Shown: in pieces, positions 934 to 27,550 of the stretch
Layout: every line of letters starts with the position of its first letter
Position numbering within the stretch: the first letter of the stretch is position 1
Assembly: GCA_026770705.1 (NCBI GenBank)
Contig: JANJGN010000152.1
Span: 1 to 64,000 of the forward strand
From: Isurus oxyrinchus
Lineage: Eukaryota
DNA length: 64,000 bases
Reading direction: 5' to 3'
Notes under the pieces: model-generated
The model's database searches: none
The model's input: only the letters and a program-made list of their open reading frames with translations
Told to the model about the DNA's origin: nothing
Position numbers and translations under genes: made by a program

Positions 934-1378
934 AACAGAGAAGCAGTACACGACAGCATCAGTCAACTGCAGATCTGAATTGGATAAAATAGTGAATTTC
1001 GCGAAGGTCTGGAGCTTGACTGAGAAACGGATTTGGGCAAAACCTGTTTTATCTTCATAATCGCTCGTAGATTTCAGCAATATAAACTGGAGCTGGGCGC
1101 CTAGATGTTGCCTGTACCAGTTTAGCCAATAGCTGCTTTGTGTCAGATATTAACTGCAGCTTAAAGTCACTGCTTCCTCTTTTGCCTTTGCATCTGAGGA
1201 CAGCGGTTCTTACAGAATTTCCATGAATTAGATGTGAACAACATGCTGAAACAGAAAAAAAAAATCAGAACATTTAAAAGCTGTGTGGGAAATGAGAAAA
1301 ATAAAGATGAAATGTGCGTTGTCCAAAATTACCTGTCAGAAATGGTCCCCACACAAGCCAGATGTTGAGTAGTTGCAT
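934..1378 (-). pseudogene. TCR alpha/delta-type V pseudogene (leader 1333-1378, V exon ~934-1245)
   Basis: Leader MQLLNIWLVWGPFLT with GT donor; V reads VTLSCS*YLTQSSYWLNWYRQ...FAQIRFS...LQLTDAVVYCF; FR1 frameshift, stop, decayed RSS (AACGATG...ACAAACTCT). Confidence 0.85.
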
Positions 1379-5422: not shown

Positions 5423-5673
5423 GCAGTGATGGAACATGACAGTAAGCGGTTGTTGCGGAAGGGGACATTGTAACATTGACATGTTTTATCACAGTAGCAG
5501 GGCGGATCCTACAATGGTACAGACAATATCCGGACTAAACAGTGCAGCATCTGGCGAGAAGTACCAGCGATCGGAAAAGGATCAAAGTTTGGCCCAATTT
5601 AGCATAGTGAAGTGCTCTGAATGTTAGCAACACTTCAGTGACAGACGGTGCCACCTATTTCTGTTCGTTTGAG
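5423..5673 (+). pseudogene. TCR V (alpha-like) pseudogene; possible 5' part/leader at 4831-4888
   Basis: VVAEGDIVTLTCFITVAGRILQWYRQYPD*...LNVSNTSVTDGATYFCSF; several stops; no clean RSS. Confidence 0.75.
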
Positions 5674-7344: not shown

Positions 7345-7562
7345 CCACCCTGTACCGACGATGCTGATTCCTTATGCTGGTACCGGCAGTACCCAGGCAG
7401 ACAGCCCGAATTTGCAGTCCGGAGGCTCATGGGTGGCAGTTCAGTATTTAAGGCGGATTTCGCTCAGAGCCGGTTTTCTAATATAGTCCAGCAGTTGTAT
7501 CGATTGACGATCTTGGAGTTGTGGCTGTCTAACACCGCGGTCTATTGCTGTGCACTGAGTCT
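7345..7562 (+). pseudogene. TCR V (delta-like) pseudogene, 5'-truncated
   Basis: LCWYRQYPGRQPEF...ADFAQSRFS...LTILELWLSNTAVYCCALS; FR1 and leader absent. Confidence 0.8.
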
Positions 7563-8580: not shown

Positions 8581-9119
8581 CCTCTACGAGGAAGGCTCCG
8601 TCTGGTTCCTGTCACTGTGTCTCTCAGCCCGCAGTAATACACTGCGCTGTCAGGCAGCCGCAGGTCGCGGTTGGTGAAATTCTCCTCACTTCTGGAAGTG
8701 TCGAGAGATGCGGATAATTGAGTCCCCGCGCCCTCTGCGTTGAAAACAACCCCAGCGTAAGGGTTACAGGTCAATATTGTGGGGGCTTTTTCGCCTTCCT
8801 GATGGTACAGTTGCAATAAGCAGAAACCAAACGTGGTCGAATAGCTGAAAGTAATGGTCAGCGAGTCTCCTTCAAACTGTGCCCCTGCAACCGGCTCCTG
8901 TAACACCGAGTCTGCAGAAAATTCAAAGTACAGAACTTCAACTTCTTATTATCACTGTTACAATCAGGGTTATCATGTTAACGGAGCCCTTTACAAATAA
9001 AGGGAAACATAGTTAAAAGGAAGATCACTGTGCCAGTATAACCTGCAAAATGAAAATTGCGTAACTTTGCAATTTACCAGTTAAGAGAATCGCAGCTGTG
9101 AAGAATGAACAGACAACAT
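8581..9119 (-). pseudogene. TCR V gene with open V exon (8620-8911) that is non-functional
   Basis: DSVLQEP...DSAVYYCGLRD followed by CACAGTG; first Cys is Phe, Trp is Leu; nonamer TCGTAGAGG; leader-like exon near 9078-9119 has its ATG out of frame. Confidence 0.85.
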
Positions 9120-11629: not shown

Positions 11630-12197
11630 ATGTTGCTGATAATACTGACGGCGCTGTTCGACAGTAAGTACTGGATTAAGTTGATCAAGGCAGATCGGTA
11701 GATTAGTGTACAGAGATTGCGATAGTTTTTAGTAGAATTCACGATCAGAAATATCCATAGTATGGATAACTAGGTAGATAGGAGGTTCTGCAAACCCAAA
11801 CAGCTACAAACAAATGGAGATCAACACTGTTTAACCGCTTGATATTTCATTCCTCTACCTCACAGGCGGACGATGCGCACATCCAGTAACTCAGTCCCCG
11901 GTCGCACTAACGGTGTCGGAAGGGGGTTTGGTGCAGTTAGATTGTGAATATACAGATCGGAATCTAAACTACATGCAATGGTATCGGCAGCAGACGGCAC
12001 AGCCACCAAGATGGATTATTACCAATGTCTTAGCACTGAAGAAAAATTAAATTTCAGGACGGTATCTGGCGGCTGCTGACATGTCTCAAAAGAACGGTTA
12101 CCTCAACATAAGCGAACTGAGTGTGGAGGACGGGGCGGTGTATTACTCTGCAATGAGGCACAGCGTTAGATCACAGCTAGAACCCCATACCTCAGCG
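11630..12197 (+). pseudogene. TCR V pseudogene (leader 11630-11663, V 11866-12158, 23-RSS)
   Basis: MLLIILTALFD|GTAAGT; PVTQSP...LDCEY...MQWYRQ...KN*ISGRY...DGAVYYSAMR; in-frame TAA, second Cys is Ser; CACAGCG with poor nonamer. Confidence 0.9.
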
Positions 12198-18100: not shown

Positions 18101-19155
18101 TGTGTGACTTCCCGTCGGCCTTGCTTGTGTGCCGCACAGTCATCCATTTTTTGTGCGGCCAGACGCTATCGGGAATTTCCCGTTTCTTCCGTTATTGACA
18201 TTTCGAGGTCTGCCTGCAATATTGCACAGTCCCTTTCCCATCAACTCTGTCATGTCCTGGAGTCTTTACTCGCAGACTCTGTCACTGTTAATGATAATTC
18301 TGAATATTACAGAACTGGAAACCAATCCTCACTGAATGGAAACATCATTTTAAATGCAAAACAGAGAAGGGAAGCGTTTGTTTAAATGAGAGAGGGGGCT
18401 TGTTTTTCGCGTATGTTGTATATATCTGCCTGGATGTTGTCAATGGGCTGTATCATATTGCAAGCTGATCCTCAGAGGCTGGACTGAGGGAAGCAGCGGC
18501 GCCTCAGGCTCTCTCCTTCAGATCAGGTACTCAACCCAGATCCCGTCAACCCCTTCAGGGTGTTAATGAATTCCCGGCAGTATTGCAATGAGTGGAAGTA
18601 AGACCACACAGTAAATACACATGGAACCACCTCCCAGCTCCTTACTACAGCGTGAAGGAGGGCAGCAGCACCTACTGACAGAATCATGCCCATCTCACAC
18701 CGCCCTGTTCAACAGAGAAATGTGGAAGGGGATTTAACATCCAGCTCCAATGAAGCGAAAGATAGTCATAGGGTTCCTCATTCAGCCTGAGAGTTATTCA
18801 CGCAACACACAACCAGAGACCGTGGATCCTTGCGGCCCACCACTGATCTCGCGGATACTGCCCTCTGCAAATCAGCATTACCCCACATTAAGCAGGGCAT
18901 CCCAAACTGTGTGTCACGCGACACCCAGTGGGGTTACGAGGCCGAATTTGGGGGTCGTGAGTTCCGAAGCAGCAACAGACTGAGTGCAACAGCTCCGCCC
19001 CTTTGAACTCTCGTTTTATTTAAACGGCAGGCGTGGCCTAATTTTCGTGCCTAGAATCTTTCAGTCCAGCTCTGAGGTCCGGCCTCCCAGTGCAGTCCAG
19101 GGCTGCGGTCTCCAACTCCCCGTCATATAAACCCCCAGCTCCAGGCAGCAGAACG

Positions 19156-19659
19156 ATGGGAATCCACTTTGTTTTCACCCTGTGTGTCTGTTTACCTCGT
19201 GAGTACCGATCACACAAACAGACATTATGTGGATTTCATATAAGGCTGCCCGAGTCCATCCCAATTACAGACAGGGGGTTTAACCCGGTTCTGTGATTCG
19301 GCTCTGATGGTCCATGAAACTATCTCTGTTTAATTTCCAGGAGTTTTCAGTCAGCAGTGACACAAACCCCGGCAGCGGTGACCAGGAAGTAATGTCAGTC
19401 TCTCACCATTACCTGTGTTTTCCACGCTGGTTATTGGGATATTGTCCAAACGGTGCTTTTCATCAGACAAACCCAGACCGGAGCAGAGCGGGAGCGGATC
19501 TCCAGCGGGGGGACATTGTTTGTGTCAATGGATAAAACAGAAAAGACATTTTCGTTGGAAATTTGGGATGTGAGAGTTGAAGGCACTGCCACCTATTACT
19601 GTAAAGCTCAGTACTACGTTACACAGCGACTGGCCTCGGCTTCCCGGGATACAAACATT
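19156..19659 (+). pseudogene. NAR-TCR V (VNAR-like) pseudogene: leader 19156-19198, V 19341-19621, RSS 19622-19659
   Basis: TATAAA at 19126; leader MGIHFVFTLCVCLP; V reads AVTQTPAAVTRK*CQSLTITCVF...FIRQTQTGAERERISSGG...KTFSLEIWDVRVEGTATYYCKA, with short VNAR-type FR2/CDR2 and extra FR1 Cys; CACAGCG-22-ACAAACATT. Confidence 0.88.
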
Positions 19660-19862
19660 CTCATGCAGATTATCACAAAAACAAGTAAAAAAGCGGAGTT
19701 AATTCTGCCGTTAAACGCCCAGAGTTCAGCCTCATACCGTCTGTCCCCCAGTCTAGTTTGTAGTGAGATTGGATTATTACCGTTAACAACTTGAGTTTTA
19801 AAACTACGAAGCGTGTGCGGATGGTGAAGGCTTCCCCGGGGTTGGTGTCGGTGAAACAGTGG

Positions 19863-21940
19863 AACGTAGAAACATAGAAATAGGAGCTGGAGTAGGCCGT
19901 TCGGCCCTTCGATCTTGTTCCGCCATTCAATATTATCATGGTTGATCCTGGATCTAAACACCATACTCCCACTTAATGCCACTAATATCCAAAAATATGT
20001 CGATTTTTTTTCTTGAATATACTCAGTGACTCCATAGACTTCTTTGGTCGAGAATTCTACAGGTTGACCATCCTCAGAGTGAAGGAATCTTCCTCATTTC
20101 GGTCGCAAATGGCCTTCCCCGTATTCTGCTGTGGCCCCTGGTTCTAGACTCCCCAACCAAGGGAAACATCCTTCCTGCATCTAGTCTGTCTAGCGCTGTT
20201 AGAATTATATGTGTTTCAATCAGAACCCCTCTCATTCTTCTAAACTCTAGTGAATGCAGGCCCAGTTGAACCAATCTCTCCTCATACAACTGTCCTGCCA
20301 TCCCCAGTATCAACCTCGTGAACATTCGCTCCACTCCCTCTACGGCAAATATATCTTTTCTTGCGTAGAGAGACCAAATCTGCACGCAATGCTCCTGGTG
20401 TGTTCTCACCAAGGCCCTTTGCAACTGCAGTAAAACATCCCTACTTCTGAAATCAAATCCACTTTAAATGAAGGCCAACATATCATTTGCCTTCCCAATT
20501 GCTGCACCTGTCTGTTTAGTTTCATTGGCTGGTGTACAACGACACCCAGACTCCTTCGTACACCCATATTTCCCAATTTATCACCATTTATATAATGCTC
20601 TGACTTTCTGTTTTCACACCGAAGCGTATAACTTTATATTTATCCACGTTATACTGCACTTGCCATGTGATTGCCGACACAGAAAACTTGTCTAAATTGC
20701 CCTGAATCCCTCTTGCATGCTCCTCACATCTCACAGCCTCGTGCAGTTTTGTGTCGTCATCAAACTTGGAAATATTGCATTTGGTTTCCTCATCCAAATT
20801 ATCTATATATGTTGTGAATAACTGGGGCTCAAGCACTGATCGCTGCGGTACACCACTAGTCAAGGCCTGCCACCGGGATAAAGACCCATTATTCCCACTG
20901 TCTGTTTCTGGTCTGTCAACCAATTCTCAGTCCAAGCCAGTATATTACCTCCAATCTCATGTGCTTTACTTTTGTCCACTAGCCTCTTAGGTGGGACCTT
21001 ATTAAAATCTTCTTGAAATCCAAATACACCAGATCTAGTGGTTCTCCGTTATCTATCCTACTAAAAAACTCGAGTAGATTAGTTAAGCATGATTTCCCTT
21101 TCATAAACCGATGCTGACTTTGTCTAATCTCATTGATGCTTTCCAAGTGTTCAGTTATTTTATAACAGACACTAGCATTTTGCTCACAACTGATGTTAGG
21201 CTAACTGCTCTGTAATTATCTGTTTTTGCTCTCCTTCCTTTTTTTAAAATAATGGGGTTACATTTGCCACCCCCAATATGTAGGAACTGTTCCAGAGTCT
21301 ATAGATTTTTGGAAGGTGACCACCTATGCATCCAATATTTCCAGCGCCACCTCCTTTAGACATCTGGGATGTGGATTATCAGGCCCTGGGGATTTTCCAG
21401 ATTTTAACCCCATTAATTTCTCCACCACAATGTTTTTCACTAATGCTGATTTCCTTCAATTCCTCGCTCTCACTGGGCCCGTGGTTCCCTAACATTTCTG
21501 GGAAATTATTTGTGTTGCCTTTTCTGAAGGCAGAACCAAAATATCTCTTCAATTTTTTTGCCATTTCTTTGTTCCCAATTATCGTTTCCCCCGTTTGTGA
21601 GTGTTTGTTTACTAATCATTTTCTCTTCCGCATATTTATGGAGGCTTTTACTATCAATTTTTATGTTCCCTGCAAGTTTACTCTCGTACTACATTTTCCC
21701 CTTCTTGATCAGTCTTTTTTCCAGTTTTGCTGAATTCTAAACTACTTCCAACCCTCAGGATTGAAGCTTTTTCTGGAGATTTTTTATGTCTACTCGTTAG
21801 ATCTAATACTATCCCTAATTTCTTTTGTAATCCATGGTTGAACCATCTTTCCCATATTATTTTTGCGCCAGACGGGAATGAATAATTTTTGTAATTCATG
21901 CATACGTTCCTTAAATATTAACCATTGCCGATCCACTTTA
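19863..21940 (-). mobile_element. CR1-type LINE, 5'-truncated and decayed
   Basis: RT fragments SGVPQRSVLEPQLF...KFDDDTKL and LVRTHQEHCVQIWS; short-repeat 3' tail. Confidence 0.9.
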
Positions 21941-22193
21941 ATTTTAATTTCCACCATTCAGTTATCTTTCTTTGATATTTTTCTCGGTTTATATGAAGCG
22001 AATATCTCATTCCCAGGACCATTTACGCAGAGCTGAGGGCCTCAGAAAGAATAGTTTGAACAGATAGAGACTTTGAAACATTGAATATTGATTATTCATT
22101 TAAACCTGCTTTATAATTGTCTACTGCCTGATGATGATTTCCCGGCAGTTGAGTTGTCAATGGTTCTTGAACTGGGAGAGTGAGAGTGGTGTG

Positions 22194-22238
22194 CGAATTA
22201 TGTAGATGGATCCAGGATGGTGGTGACTGGCACAGCCG
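22194..22238 (+). pseudogene. Degenerate NAR-TCR J segment (NYVDGSRMVVTGTA)
   Basis: Resembles xxGSGTVVTVTA; donor mutated to ATAAGT; nonamer-like GGTTCTTGA at 22162; lies between NAR V and supporting V. Confidence 0.6.
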
Positions 22239-23634
22239 ATAAGTGACTCTGAAGCCCGCATGTTGCAGACTGTGCTGGATATTGTTCACAGTCAGCTTCT
22301 TGTGATCAACATCGTTTCAATCACATCGAAACTAAAAAAACGATTTCTAAGGGACCTTTTCCATTGCAGGCTTCGATTTAGGAATAGGGTATGATCGGAC
22401 AGTCGGGTCATTTACCCGCCATTTGTTTCAATTGTCTTCATATACCCAATCATTTCCTCCTTTTCCATCCTCAGATCGAAATGTGAAAGTTTGGAACTGC
22501 AGACATTTCTCTTTATTGAATGTCGATGTTTGAGAGATGGGATTGCTGTAATTTCTCTGTATCCCTGATTACTGTGAATTAAAAACGCAAAGTGCAGTGA
22601 GAGAGTGAGGATGATGCATTAATCTTATAAAGGAGAACAGGGACATAAGGAAAAAATTATAAACTGAGAGAATGTTCATTTAGAACCAGCAAGAAATAAT
22701 TCATCGAATGGGAGAGAAGGATTGGATGATCTCTGGGCTGTTCAAAGTACAATCCGAGCAAAGGGTGGTGGGCAATGTTTATGGAGAGAAGGACTCCAGT
22801 TTGGAATGCTGTGTAAAGTCTGGTATCTAACTTAGGGAAGGTTGTACATGCTTTGGAACAAATGTTCATCAGACTGATTCCTGAAGTAAAGGGATTGTCC
22901 TATGGGAAGGGATTGAGTAGACTGGACCTGTGTTCCCTGGAGTTTACAGTAATGAGGGCGATCTCATGAGAACACATGATACCTTTAAGAAGCTTGCGAG
23001 GGAAGGTTCTGGTGGGAGTTTCCTCAGGTTGGAAAGTCTATAACTGGGAGCCATAGTTTCAGCATAAGGGGTCGGCCATTAGAATGGGGAAGAGAGAAGT
23101 TTCAATCAATGCTGATTAATCACAATCACTTTCATTTCGATCATGCTTTGCACAGTGATGCTGATGCTGATTGTCCCATACAATCATTTTTTGGAAACTG
23201 ATTGCCATACTGATAATAAATGTTCCATCGGGGTGTCACTCACCAAGGAAAATAGAAGCAGAAATGTAATATACAACATAGAACCATGCCAAGAGGTAGA
23301 ATGACATTCGGCCCATCGTGGAGGTGCTATCACTTTCAAAGTGCAATCCAATTTTTACCATTTTTCCTGTTGTAGTATAGGTACATCAGCCATTTGAAAG
23401 TTCCCACTGAGTCTGTTCGCACCACCCATTCTGACCGCGCAGTGCAGATTGGAAAAATTCTCGATGCAAAAGAAAATTATCATCTCTGCACTTAATCACA
23501 TCTCAACGACGGTGAATACGGTTGGAACAGGCTTGCTTCAAGTTTAGAAAAACGAACGTTTCATGTCATTGACAAATTCTCCCAGGTAAACCATGGCTAA
23601 ACAAACAATTAATGTTCGTTTTTTTATTCTCCAG

Positions 23635-23723
23635 ATTCCAGTTCCCTGGTGTCTTAGTGCCCGCCTCTACAAACATCTGCTGTCGGTGACACCATTACTT
23701 GAAGCTGTGAATGTTCAGGGTTA
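23635..23723 (+). pseudogene. Leaderless NAR-TCR-supporting Vdelta, 5' fragment
   Basis: Acceptor TTTTATTCTCCAG|; DSSSLVS*CPPLQTSAVGDTIT*SCECSG; no leader exon seen; cut off by a tandem repeat and an assembly gap. Confidence 0.7.
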
Positions 23724-23727
23724 GATC

Positions 23728-23909
23728 ACGGAGAGAGCTGTTCAGAAACCTGAACATGGTGGGATTACAGACACATAGTGATACAGAGCACGGAGAGAGC
23801 TGTACAAAAACCTGAACATGGTGGGATTACAGACACATAGAGATACAAAGCGCGGAAAGAGCTCTATGGAAACGTGAACAAAGTGGGGATTCCAGATGCA
23901 GTGATACAG
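23728..23909 (+). repeat. ~61-bp tandem repeat (3 copies) running into an assembly gap
   Basis: CACGGAGAGAGCTG...AAACCTGAACATGGTGGGATTACAGACACATAG.GATACA repeated. Confidence 0.9.
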
Positions 23910-25129
23910 NNNNNNNNNNNNNNNNNNNNNNNNNNNNNNNNNNNNNNNNNNNNNNNNNNNNNNNNNNNNNNNNNNNNNNNNNNNNNNNNNNNNNNNNNNN
24001 NNNNNNNNNNNNNNNNNNNNNNNNNNNNNNNNNNNNNNNNNNNNNNNNNNNNNNNNNNNNNNNNNNNNNNNNNNNNNNNNNNNNNNNNNNNNNNNNNNNN
24101 NNNNNNNNNNNNNNNNNNNNNNNNNNNNNNNNNNNNNNNNNNNNNNNNNNNNNNNNNNNNNNNNNNNNNNNNNNNNNNNNNNNNNNNNNNNNNNNNNNNN
24201 NNNNNNNNNNNNNNNNNNNNNNNNNNNNNNNNNNNNNNNNNNNNNNNNNNNNNNNNNNNNNNNNNNNNNNNNNNNNNNNNNNNNNNNNNNNNNNNNNNNN
24301 NNNNNNNNNNNNNNNNNNNNTATGATAAAATAGCAGATAGAAAACGTTTTTGCCATTTAAGGACTCTTCGTTCCGGAGACAAAGGAGCAGGAAAAACAGA
24401 TTGATAGATTTTATATGATGATTGACATAGCTTCAGATATAAATGCACATGCTGACACTGACTGGGATAAAAAGCTTGTCAGAGAAGCAATTAGAATTAT
24501 AGATTGATGAATAGAAGAGAGTCGTATCAATGTTGGAATGGGCAAACAGAGCGAAAATTAAAAATGAATGAAACAATCAAATAACAATGTTGGTTGACAG
24601 CCAAAAGTGAAAACTCCATCGATATATTGGCCACATTATTTGCGCTCTGGGACCCTGCGCTTTATTTGGAGCCTCCTGTCAGTCGAGGCTTTCGGAATCA
24701 AGGTGGGGGGCAGGGGTGGGAGAGGAGGGAGGAGAATATTGAGTGGTCTTCGCCAGCATATCGGCCCCCATTGCTTCCTGCATCTATCCAAAAGCCTATG
24801 ATCATTGCCGCAGTTTGTGACAATCAGCACTGCCTGCGGTCCCGCAAGCAGTCTCCCTGAACTCTTCTGTTGTGCCCCTGATACCTGGACTTGAGAATGT
24901 GTGAGGGTTCTGTGTATTCTTGCCGGTCACTGTCTATTTCTCTCTCCCNNNNNNNNNNNNNNNNNNNNNNNNNNNNNNNNNNNNNNNNNNNNNNNNNNNN
25001 NNNNNNNNNNNNNNNNNNNNNNNNNNNNNNNNNNNNNNNNNNNNNNNNNNNNNNNNNNNNNNNNNNNNNNNNNNNNNNNNNNNATGCGTTTGCTCGCAAA
25101 AAATAAATATTTCGTGTTTAGAAAATATA

Positions 25130-27550
25130 AAAACATAGAAACATAGAAAGTAGGAGCAGGGCTATGCCATAGGCCCTTCGAGCCAGCTCCGCCATTCATC
25201 ATGATTGTGGCTGATCATCCAACTCAATAGCCTGCTCCCGCTTTCTGCCCTTACCCTTTGATCCCTTTCGCCCCAAGAGCTATATCTAACTATTTCTTGA
25301 AAGCATGTATTATTTTGGCATCAAATACTTTCGGTGGTAGCGAATTCCATAGGCTCACCACTCTCTGGGTGAAGACATTTCTTCTCATCTCAATTCTAAA
25401 TGGTCTACCCCGTATCCACAGACTGTGACCTCTGGTTCTGGACTCCCCCGCCATCGGGACCATCCTTCCTGCATCTACACTGTCTGGCCCTGTTAGAATT
25501 TTATAGTCTTCTATGAGATTCTGCTCTCATTCTTCTGAACCCAAGCGAATATAATCGTAACCAACTCAATCACTCCTCAGATGTCTGTCCTGCCATCCCA
25601 GGAATCAGTCTGATAAACGTTCGCTGCACCCCCTCTATAGCAAGAACATTCTTCCTCAGATAAGGAGCCCAAACCTGCCCATAATATTCCAGGTGTGGTC
25701 TCACCAAGGCCCTGTACAATTGCAGCAATACATCCTGCTCCTGTACTGGAATCCTCTGCTATGAAGGTCAACGTACCATTTGCCCTCTTTTGCATCTGCT
25801 GCATCTGCATGCTTACCTTCTGCGATTGGTGTACGACGACACCCAGCTCTCGTAGCACATTCCCCTCTCTGAATTTATAGCCATTCAGATAATAATCTCC
25901 CTTCCTGTTATTGCATCCAAAGTGGATAACCTCAAATTTATCCACATTATGCTTCACCTGCCATGCATTTTTCCACTCACTCAGCCTGTCCAAGTCACAC
26001 TGAAGCAGCTCTGCATCCTCCTCACAGCTCACCCTCCCACCCAGCTTTGTGTCATCTGCAAATTTAGAGGTATTACATTTAGTTCCCTAATTTAAATCAT
26101 TAATATCTATTGTTAATAGCTGGGCACGCAGCACCGATCCCTAAGGTACCCCACTTGTCACTGCCTGCCATTCGGAAAATGTCCCGTGTATTCCTCCTCT
26201 TTGTTTCATGTCTGCCAACCAGTTTTCTATCCATCTCAACACACTTTCCCCAATCCCATACGCTTTAATTTTACATGCTAATCTCTTCTGTGGGACTTTG
26301 TCGACAGCCTTCTGAAAGTCCAACTAAAACGCATCCATTGGCTCCCCCTCATCAACTCCACTAGTGACATCCTCGAAAAATTCCAATAGATTTGTCGTAA
26401 ATGCATGCTGACTGTCCGATTCTGCCAATATTTTCCAAGTGCTCAGCTATTAAATCTTTTATAATGGCCTCTAGAATTTTCCCCACTAGCGACATCAGGC
26501 TGACTGGCCTTTTATTTCCTGTTTTCTCTGCACCTCTCTTTTTCAATAGTGGGGTTACATTAGCAACCCTCCAATCTGCAGGAACTGTACCAGAGTCTAT
26601 AGGATCTAGGAAGATGATCACCAATGCATCCATTATTTCTAGTGTCATTTCCTTAAGTGCTCTGGGATGTAGATTATCAGGCCCTGGGGATTTTTCGGCC
26701 TTCCATCCCATCAATTTCCCCAACACCATTTCCCTACTAATACAAATTTCTTTCAGTTCCTCCCTCTCTCGAAACCCTGAGTTTCCCAACATTTCTGGTA
26801 TGTTATTTGTGACCTCTTTGTGAAGACTGAACCAAAGTATGTATTTACTTGGTCAGCCATTTCTTTGCTCCCCATTATAAATTCCCCTGTTTCTGACTGT
26901 AAGGGACCTACATTTGTCTTCACCAACCTTTTTCTCTTCACATACCTATAGAATCTTTTACAGTCAGGTTTTATGTTCCCTGCAAGCTTATTCTGGTACT
27001 CTATTTTCCCCTTCTTTATCAATACCTTGGTCCTCCTTTGTTGGATTCTAATCTGCTTCCAATGCTCAGGTCTTTTTTTTCCTGGCCAATTTGTATGCCT
27101 CTTCCTTGCATCTAATACTATCTCTAATTTCTCTCGTAAACCATGGTTTGGCCACGTTTGTTGTTTCACTTTTGCGCCAGGCAGGAATAACAATTGTTTC
27201 AGTTCATCCATGTGCTCTTTGAATGTTTGCCAATGCCTGTCCACCGTCATCCCTTTAAGTAACGTTTCCCAATCCATCATAGCCAACTCACGCCTCACAC
27301 CATCGTAGTTTCCTTTATTAAGGTTCAGGGCCCCAGTTTCAGAATCAACTATGTCACTCTCCATATTGATGAAGAATTCTATCATTTTATGGCCGCTCAC
27401 CCCCAAGGGGCCTGGCACATCTAGATTGCCAATTATTGCTTTCTCATCACACAATACCCAGTCAAGAATGGCCTGTTCTCTAGTTCGTTTCTCAACGCAT
27501 TGGTCCAGAAAGCCATCCCGTATACACTCCAGGAATTCTTCCTCTACAGT
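25130..27550 (-). mobile_element. CR1-type LINE ORF2 (endonuclease C-terminus plus RT), decayed
   Basis: ORFs with ILDWVL, KSPGPDNLHPRAL, DFQKAVDKVP, SGVP. Confidence 0.92.

Follow-up and report, generated by a model that had tools for sequence, protein, structure and literature searches.

In an intact NAR-TCR cassette, RAG joins the NAR V, D and J within the cassette and the supporting V to Dδ–Jδ near Cδ, and splicing then produces a T cell receptor (TCR) delta chain with two V domains. As marks of this system, the available portions of PMC1845163 name a leader on the V, a cysteine in its a-b loop, the lack of the tryptophan of the WYRK motif, and a leaderless supporting V with a cysteine in the first complementarity-determining region (CDR1). 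Further, an elasmobranch antigen receptor complex, in which TCR V exons are found between IgH clusters that are themselves linked to TCR alpha/delta, is described in the available text of PMC12227049. The locus considered here lies in a 64,000-nucleotide stretch of the shark Isurus oxyrinchus (assembly GCA_026770705.1, contig JANJGN010000152.1, positions 1 to 64,000 of the forward strand; henceforth the window), in which an initial annotation had claimed a long-decayed cassette of NAR-TCR delta arrangement at 19080–23723. That element is almost certainly a broken NAR-TCR delta cassette whose D has been deleted and whose nested lesions extend over 15 copies, likely duplicated after its death; by descent it is a member of the known NAR-TCR system, a dead one and not a working gene. 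It shares with NAR-TCR, as portrayed in the available parts of PMC1845163, PMC3457774, PMC6795676 and PMC12227049, a leader, a V with the a-b loop cysteine and without the WYRK tryptophan, its own J, and a leaderless supporting Vδ with a recombination signal sequence (RSS), and its surroundings likewise consist of TCR V exons and IgH clusters. It differs in being a pseudogene without D, J heptamer or J donor, in having a supporting V of only 88 nt, and in being one of 15 post-mortem copies.

Lesions were mapped part by part by aligning the 15 dead copies against nine paralogous reference cassettes. A TATA-like box (19126–19131, plus strand), found in the same place in the paralogs, lies upstream of a leader exon (19156–19198, plus strand) which retains its typical form, being open from the ATG at 19156 and followed by a GT donor at 19199. 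The NAR-TCR V exon (19341–19621, plus strand) is a pseudogene, in which a 1-nt deletion near 19354 brings a TGA at 19358–60 into the spliced frame, ahead of a TAA at 19390–92. The cysteine codon of its framework region 1 (FR1), TGT at 19393–95, falls in the a-b loop. At the WYRK site the reading is VLFIRQ, with the tryptophan absent. The V RSS follows at 19622–19659 (plus strand; CACAGCG / ACAAACATT); its 22-nt spacer is the norm among intact paralogs, and its nonamer is more decayed in the window copy than in the paralogs.

Downstream of the V, a long interspersed nuclear element (LINE)-type insertion occupies 19856–21936 on the minus strand; intact paralogs do not have it, whereas each of the 15 dead copies does, with a length of about 2.5 kb in the older copies and a shortened form in the window. 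One of its eight open stretches gives a weak match to RVT_1 (20591–20926, E 0.005, below the Pfam cutoff), and a homologue search for the element found none. The window holds another LINE copy at approximately 25130–27500, which resembles the cassette insert at about 69%. The insertion ends at the junction (21936–21937) of a deletion of about 684 nt, which is seen only in the seven youngest copies and took the LINE end together with 286 nt of the cassette, the D included. Accordingly, no D was found between 19660 and 22160 of the window; the one RSS-like match, at 20028, was rejected as a D signal, as it lies inside the LINE. A damaged D is retained in eight of the 15 dead copies, and the D is whole in the paralogs. 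The cassette's own J, in contrast to its D, is present but damaged: a remnant J RSS, with nonamer and spacer but without heptamer (22162–22192, plus strand), precedes the J (22193–22238, plus strand), the heptamer and the J start having been lost by a deletion of about 14 nt. The donor reads AT for GT at 22239–40, as in 14 of the 15 dead copies, and an intron of 1396 nt, with no leader-like sequence in it, separates the J from the next acceptor.

That acceptor (AG, 23633–34) leads into the first 88 nt of a leaderless supporting Vδ (23635–23722, plus strand) with stops at 23655 and 23700. The fragment matches the exon starts of paralogous supporting Vs at 64–71 of its 88 nt in all six tested, and two-V database proteins at 20–22 of 30 amino acids in all five tested; hence the similarity is not due to chance. 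A deletion of about 245 nt has removed most of this V, including the position of the CDR1 cysteine codon, which is present in intact paralogs, together with the first heptamer, so that the remnant is fused to sequence inside its own RSS spacer. From there a tandem array of approximately 62-nt units, each a 23-spacer RSS, extends from 23723 to 23909 (plus strand), entered in the first spacer and running into N stretches (23910–24320) that cover its end. Six of the nine reference cassettes aligned carry such an array behind the supporting V; the repeat, considered as a foreign insertion, was rejected as such and is the native RSS array of the supporting V. In the window and behind most supporting Vs on scaffold C26 these arrays reach up to about six units of 62 nt, each a full 23-RSS, while the cassettes examined on scaffold C242 have a single RSS. 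At C26:25222356–25222440 an independent supporting V is cut after about 75 nt and fused directly to an intact heptamer; the cut lies at a heptamer-like site near the first cysteine codon and is possibly a cryptic-RSS joint.

With no D, J heptamer, J donor or open V, and with the supporting V reduced to a stub, the window copy is unable to make a two-V chain. The initial annotation had placed correctly the VNAR-like V with its odd FR1 cysteine and 22-nt-spacer RSS, the degenerate J with its GT-to-AT donor and, about 1.4 kb past the J, an acceptor-led V without leader, which is the 5' end of the supporting Vδ; the D that it had listed as optional is gone from this copy. Its claim of a lesion in every part stands for the V, J and supporting V and falls for the leader exon and donor, which are intact, and its set of lesions had missed the V frameshift, the loss of the J heptamer and the supporting-V deletion.

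The assignment to NAR-TCR follows from several comparisons. The window V is 64–72% identical to six NAR-TCR Vs of its own genome, whereas its identity to 17 IgNAR Vs is 31–42%. In a tree of 45 rows, the bootstrap of which had not settled, the window V groups with another copy of the dead family (98/82) within the NAR-TCR part; the 17 rows of IgNAR, including the genome's own 11 IgNAR Vs, make up a clade of their own (97/95) that excludes it. Searching for longer proteins related to the V gave 38 from sharks; those examined consist of a leader, NAR V, J and supporting V, with a delta-type C following in four of them. All C exons of the window are on the minus strand, belong to one IgM-type cluster and are at most 42% like IgNAR C, with no IgNAR C exon in the 64 kb. 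Like an IgNAR V, the window V is of the single-domain V type with a short CDR2 region, and IgNAR is its sister clade in the tree; unlike it, IgNAR Vs retain the FR2 tryptophan and precede Ig constant exons. Thus, the NAR-TCR delta arrangement claimed initially is borne out by the tree, the identities and the supporting Vδ.

The stretch from J to supporting V has 15 full-length DNA matches in the assembly at 86–100% identity, five on scaffold C26 and ten on five smaller scaffolds, which fall into three clades of seven, five and three copies that are, respectively, approximately 99, 95 and 90% identical to the window. All 15 have in common the LINE, the deletions in the J and the supporting V, and the supporting-V TGA, and a 14-nt D deletion is common to the eight that retain the D region; a TAG stop is seen in 12 of the 15, and the V exon is broken differently in each of the three clades. 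This nesting of lesions across copies indicates that the cassette was dead before it multiplied, so that it was likely duplicated after death. In the order of events suggested by the alignments, a founder would have acquired the LINE, the 14-nt D and J deletions, and the supporting-V deletion with its TGA; three sub-lineages would then have arisen, each with its own break in the V exon, and in the seven-copy lineage of the window the FR1 frameshift and the TAA would have appeared and the D would have gone entirely. The spread itself was likely passive, inside large duplicated blocks carrying V pseudogenes and an IgM-type cluster, since the neighbouring IgM C exon has been duplicated along with the cassette: it has eight matches at 96–100%, of which five besides that of the window lie about 31 kb from a copy of the window V.

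As regards age, copies with the founder lesions diverge by up to 10.7%. Further, in two runs from another organism a 1177-nt contig, with about 89% identity, reads across the supporting-V junction; that organism's J contigs are too short for the heptamer, yet keep the GT donor. The junction contig and the heptamer-less J contigs together argue that two founder lesions are older than the species split. The long decay claimed initially is therefore upheld, with the qualification that the lesions are nested and not independent.

Several observations weigh against this interpretation of the cassette and its copies. The NAR-TCR side of the tree is only moderately supported (92/82), with the bootstrap unsettled, and no protein match in the V searches was nurse shark NAR-TCR by name; the label rests on the features quoted in the available portions of PMC1845163 and on the two-V-plus-Cδ architecture of gene models. 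Some of the ten copies outside C26 may be alternate haplotypes, with two of them (L041 and L043) being 100.0% identical. Additionally, the J donor of one copy (L033) is GT where its sisters carry AT, a pattern that calls for either a conversion or a change that happened more than once.

The founder deletions probably reflect ordinary decay; a less probable but plausible alternative is that they are germ-cell RAG breaks resealed with loss on both sides, as imprecise open-and-shut or hybrid joints. All three, one each at the 5' signal of D, the J signal and that of the supporting V, span the border between heptamer and coding sequence, where RAG cuts. Between leader and J, two of three founder deletions straddle a border, which has p=0.002 under a uniform null but p=0.05 if one of them was simply the killing hit; under a whole-cassette null with 15 deletions, the probability is 0.00025 for at least three and 0.007 for at least two. 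These values have to be read with the border-crossing statistic having been chosen post hoc, the 11-nt window having been set to take in the third deletion, and about 12 dead lineages having been inspectable. None of 34 deletions in other cassettes straddles a border, but this is a weak control, as only 0.87 were expected and many of those cassettes are alive.

Germline RAG activity as such is plain at this locus. At C26:29964813 (L077:1814) an exact germline signal joint sets a D 5' 12-RSS head to head with a supporting-V 23-RSS array, the intervening D, J and supporting V being gone, and this is the sole such string in the fetched loci; together with the germline joining of 34 of the 75 NAR Vs annotated on C26, it indicates that RAG has been active in the germline here. 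Comparable events are on record for shark Ig loci, where germline joining and hybrid joints are covered in the available parts of Lee et al. 2000 (PMC2193156) and Lewis and Wu 2000 (PMC2193153). The likeness lies in inherited changes at RSS borders, the paralogs here having one exact signal joint besides their V-D and V-D-J joins; the difference is that in the shark Ig products, as portrayed there, the joining is clean and the RSS has been excised or swapped, whereas the window cassette has border deletions without joining, which are less diagnostic. The signal sides in the window lost about 4, 7 and 11 nt, whereas the signal end usually stays intact in RAG joints, and in the available portions of Lewis and Wu (PMC2193153) signal joints are exact, with loss only "sometimes". 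Moreover, the D and J borders are TG- and G-rich repeats prone to slippage, and the closest intact sister is only 85% alike, so that microhomology or added bases at the junctions are unreadable. Hence, we offer only tentatively the scenario in which RAG killed the cassette in a germ cell, with the scarred copy then being fixed, inherited across species and amplified.

A very improbable reading is that the dead copies are kept as gene-conversion donors or as RAG-loading sites for their neighbors. In its favor, they have been amplified repeatedly and still have their leader, their V RSS and their tandem RSS units; against it, the V exons broke independently in three clades, the LINE and introns were copied along, the copies move with large duplicated blocks, and no conversion tract was seen, though no search for tracts was made. 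Finally, that the V is an IgNAR V with its constant exons further on or lost is refuted for practical purposes despite its best PDB matches being VNARs (E 3e-9) and its short CDR2 region, since the genome's 11 IgNAR Vs are located elsewhere, the identities and the tree set it apart from them, and it has no FR2 tryptophan, has the a-b loop cysteine and is followed by a supporting V in a window without an IgNAR C exon.

The dead NAR-TCR cassette is set in a large array with living members. At least 151 matches to the V are present in the assembly (150 of 265 candidates scored), and annotation of 722 kb of C26 yielded 75 NAR V exons, which comprise 34 unjoined, 20 V-D joined, 14 V-D-J joined, five of the dead family, one partial joined exon and one without J. 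By a strict filter, at least 14 of the 75 are intact with an open supporting V (ten unjoined and four V-D joined, one of the latter with a partial joined exon in between); seven further V-D-joined cassettes failed only on a length setting, on account of a shorter CDR1. The 20 Vs joined to D in the germline, spread over C26:23–40 Mb, represent at least five junction types. The delta-type C has two matches in the assembly, neither of them on the window's scaffold (C152). Upstream of the one on C26, at 29.90 Mb, are a 12/23 D and 11 J-like motifs, and the closest member of the window's clade on C26 is about 5.3 Mb away from it; linkage to Dδ–Jδ–Cδ holds for the dead copies on C26. Near the second (C242:616927), NAR-TCR cassettes form a dense tandem on the minus strand at C242:385000–550000, with a spacing of about 8–12 kb.

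Within the window, an apparently intact IgM-type cluster faces the cassette (63400–45100, minus strand), comprising a leader, VH, two D, JH, four C exons, a secretory tail and a transmembrane exon; its second C exon is the one with eight near-identical matches in the assembly. TCR-type V exons lie at 946–1185 (minus), 5440–5670 (plus), 7378–7560 (plus), 8625–8918 (minus) and 11877–12155 (plus). Four of these five are visibly damaged, and that at 8625–8918 is open but without its first cysteine and gave no Pfam match. This placement of TCR-type V exons between IgH clusters resembles the elasmobranch antigen receptor complex of PMC12227049; the difference is that NAR-TCR cassettes and IgM-type clusters are here interleaved over about 17 Mb of one scaffold, a count not given in the available text of section 6 of that paper.

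A likely more important finding, and a stronger lead than the window pseudogene, lies outside the window in stacked cassettes on C26, in which a rearranging NAR V-D-J without its own supporting V is followed by one to three germline-joined NAR-VDJ exons and then a supporting V. Examples are C26:30061948–30051611 (minus), 31164868–31154546 (minus), 35936106–35946412 (plus), 37914956–37894871 (minus) and 38769353–38750342 (minus), with loci L145–L147. Among the 14 V-D-J-joined exons on C26, 13 stand behind a V-(D)-J unit without its own supporting V, and in 13 the leader is visibly damaged by an early stop or the loss of the ATG or donor, with one being maybe intact. An open V with acceptor and J donor is present in ten, and all 14 have a cysteine in the joined CDR3. 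Database models of another shark (P0002, P0010 and P0022) show these joined CDR3 types as well. On the basis of their exon layout, these cassettes predict TCR delta chains that contain at least three V domains. In the available portions of PMC3457774 and PMC6795676, NAR-TCR has one extra V only, and literature searches, the reach of which did not extend to key nurse shark papers, found no description of a three-V architecture. Mapping of four putative-RNA runs of another organism to a stacked cassette gave a signal swamped by repeats, and two such runs gave only short, low-identity pieces on the J-to-supporting-V stretch of the window.

As NAR-TCR is known and the genome has intact cassettes, a single pseudogene is of little weight by itself. 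Its nested lesions, however, place the duplications of a large shark TCR/IgM array in sequence, and the deletions across borders, the 34 germline joins and the exact signal joint make the rate and outcome of germ-cell RAG action countable in sharks. If the founder deletions are indeed RAG scars, shark TCR arrays would record abortive germline RAG cuts alongside successful joins, and RAG would itself give rise to pseudogenes in the locus that it targets.

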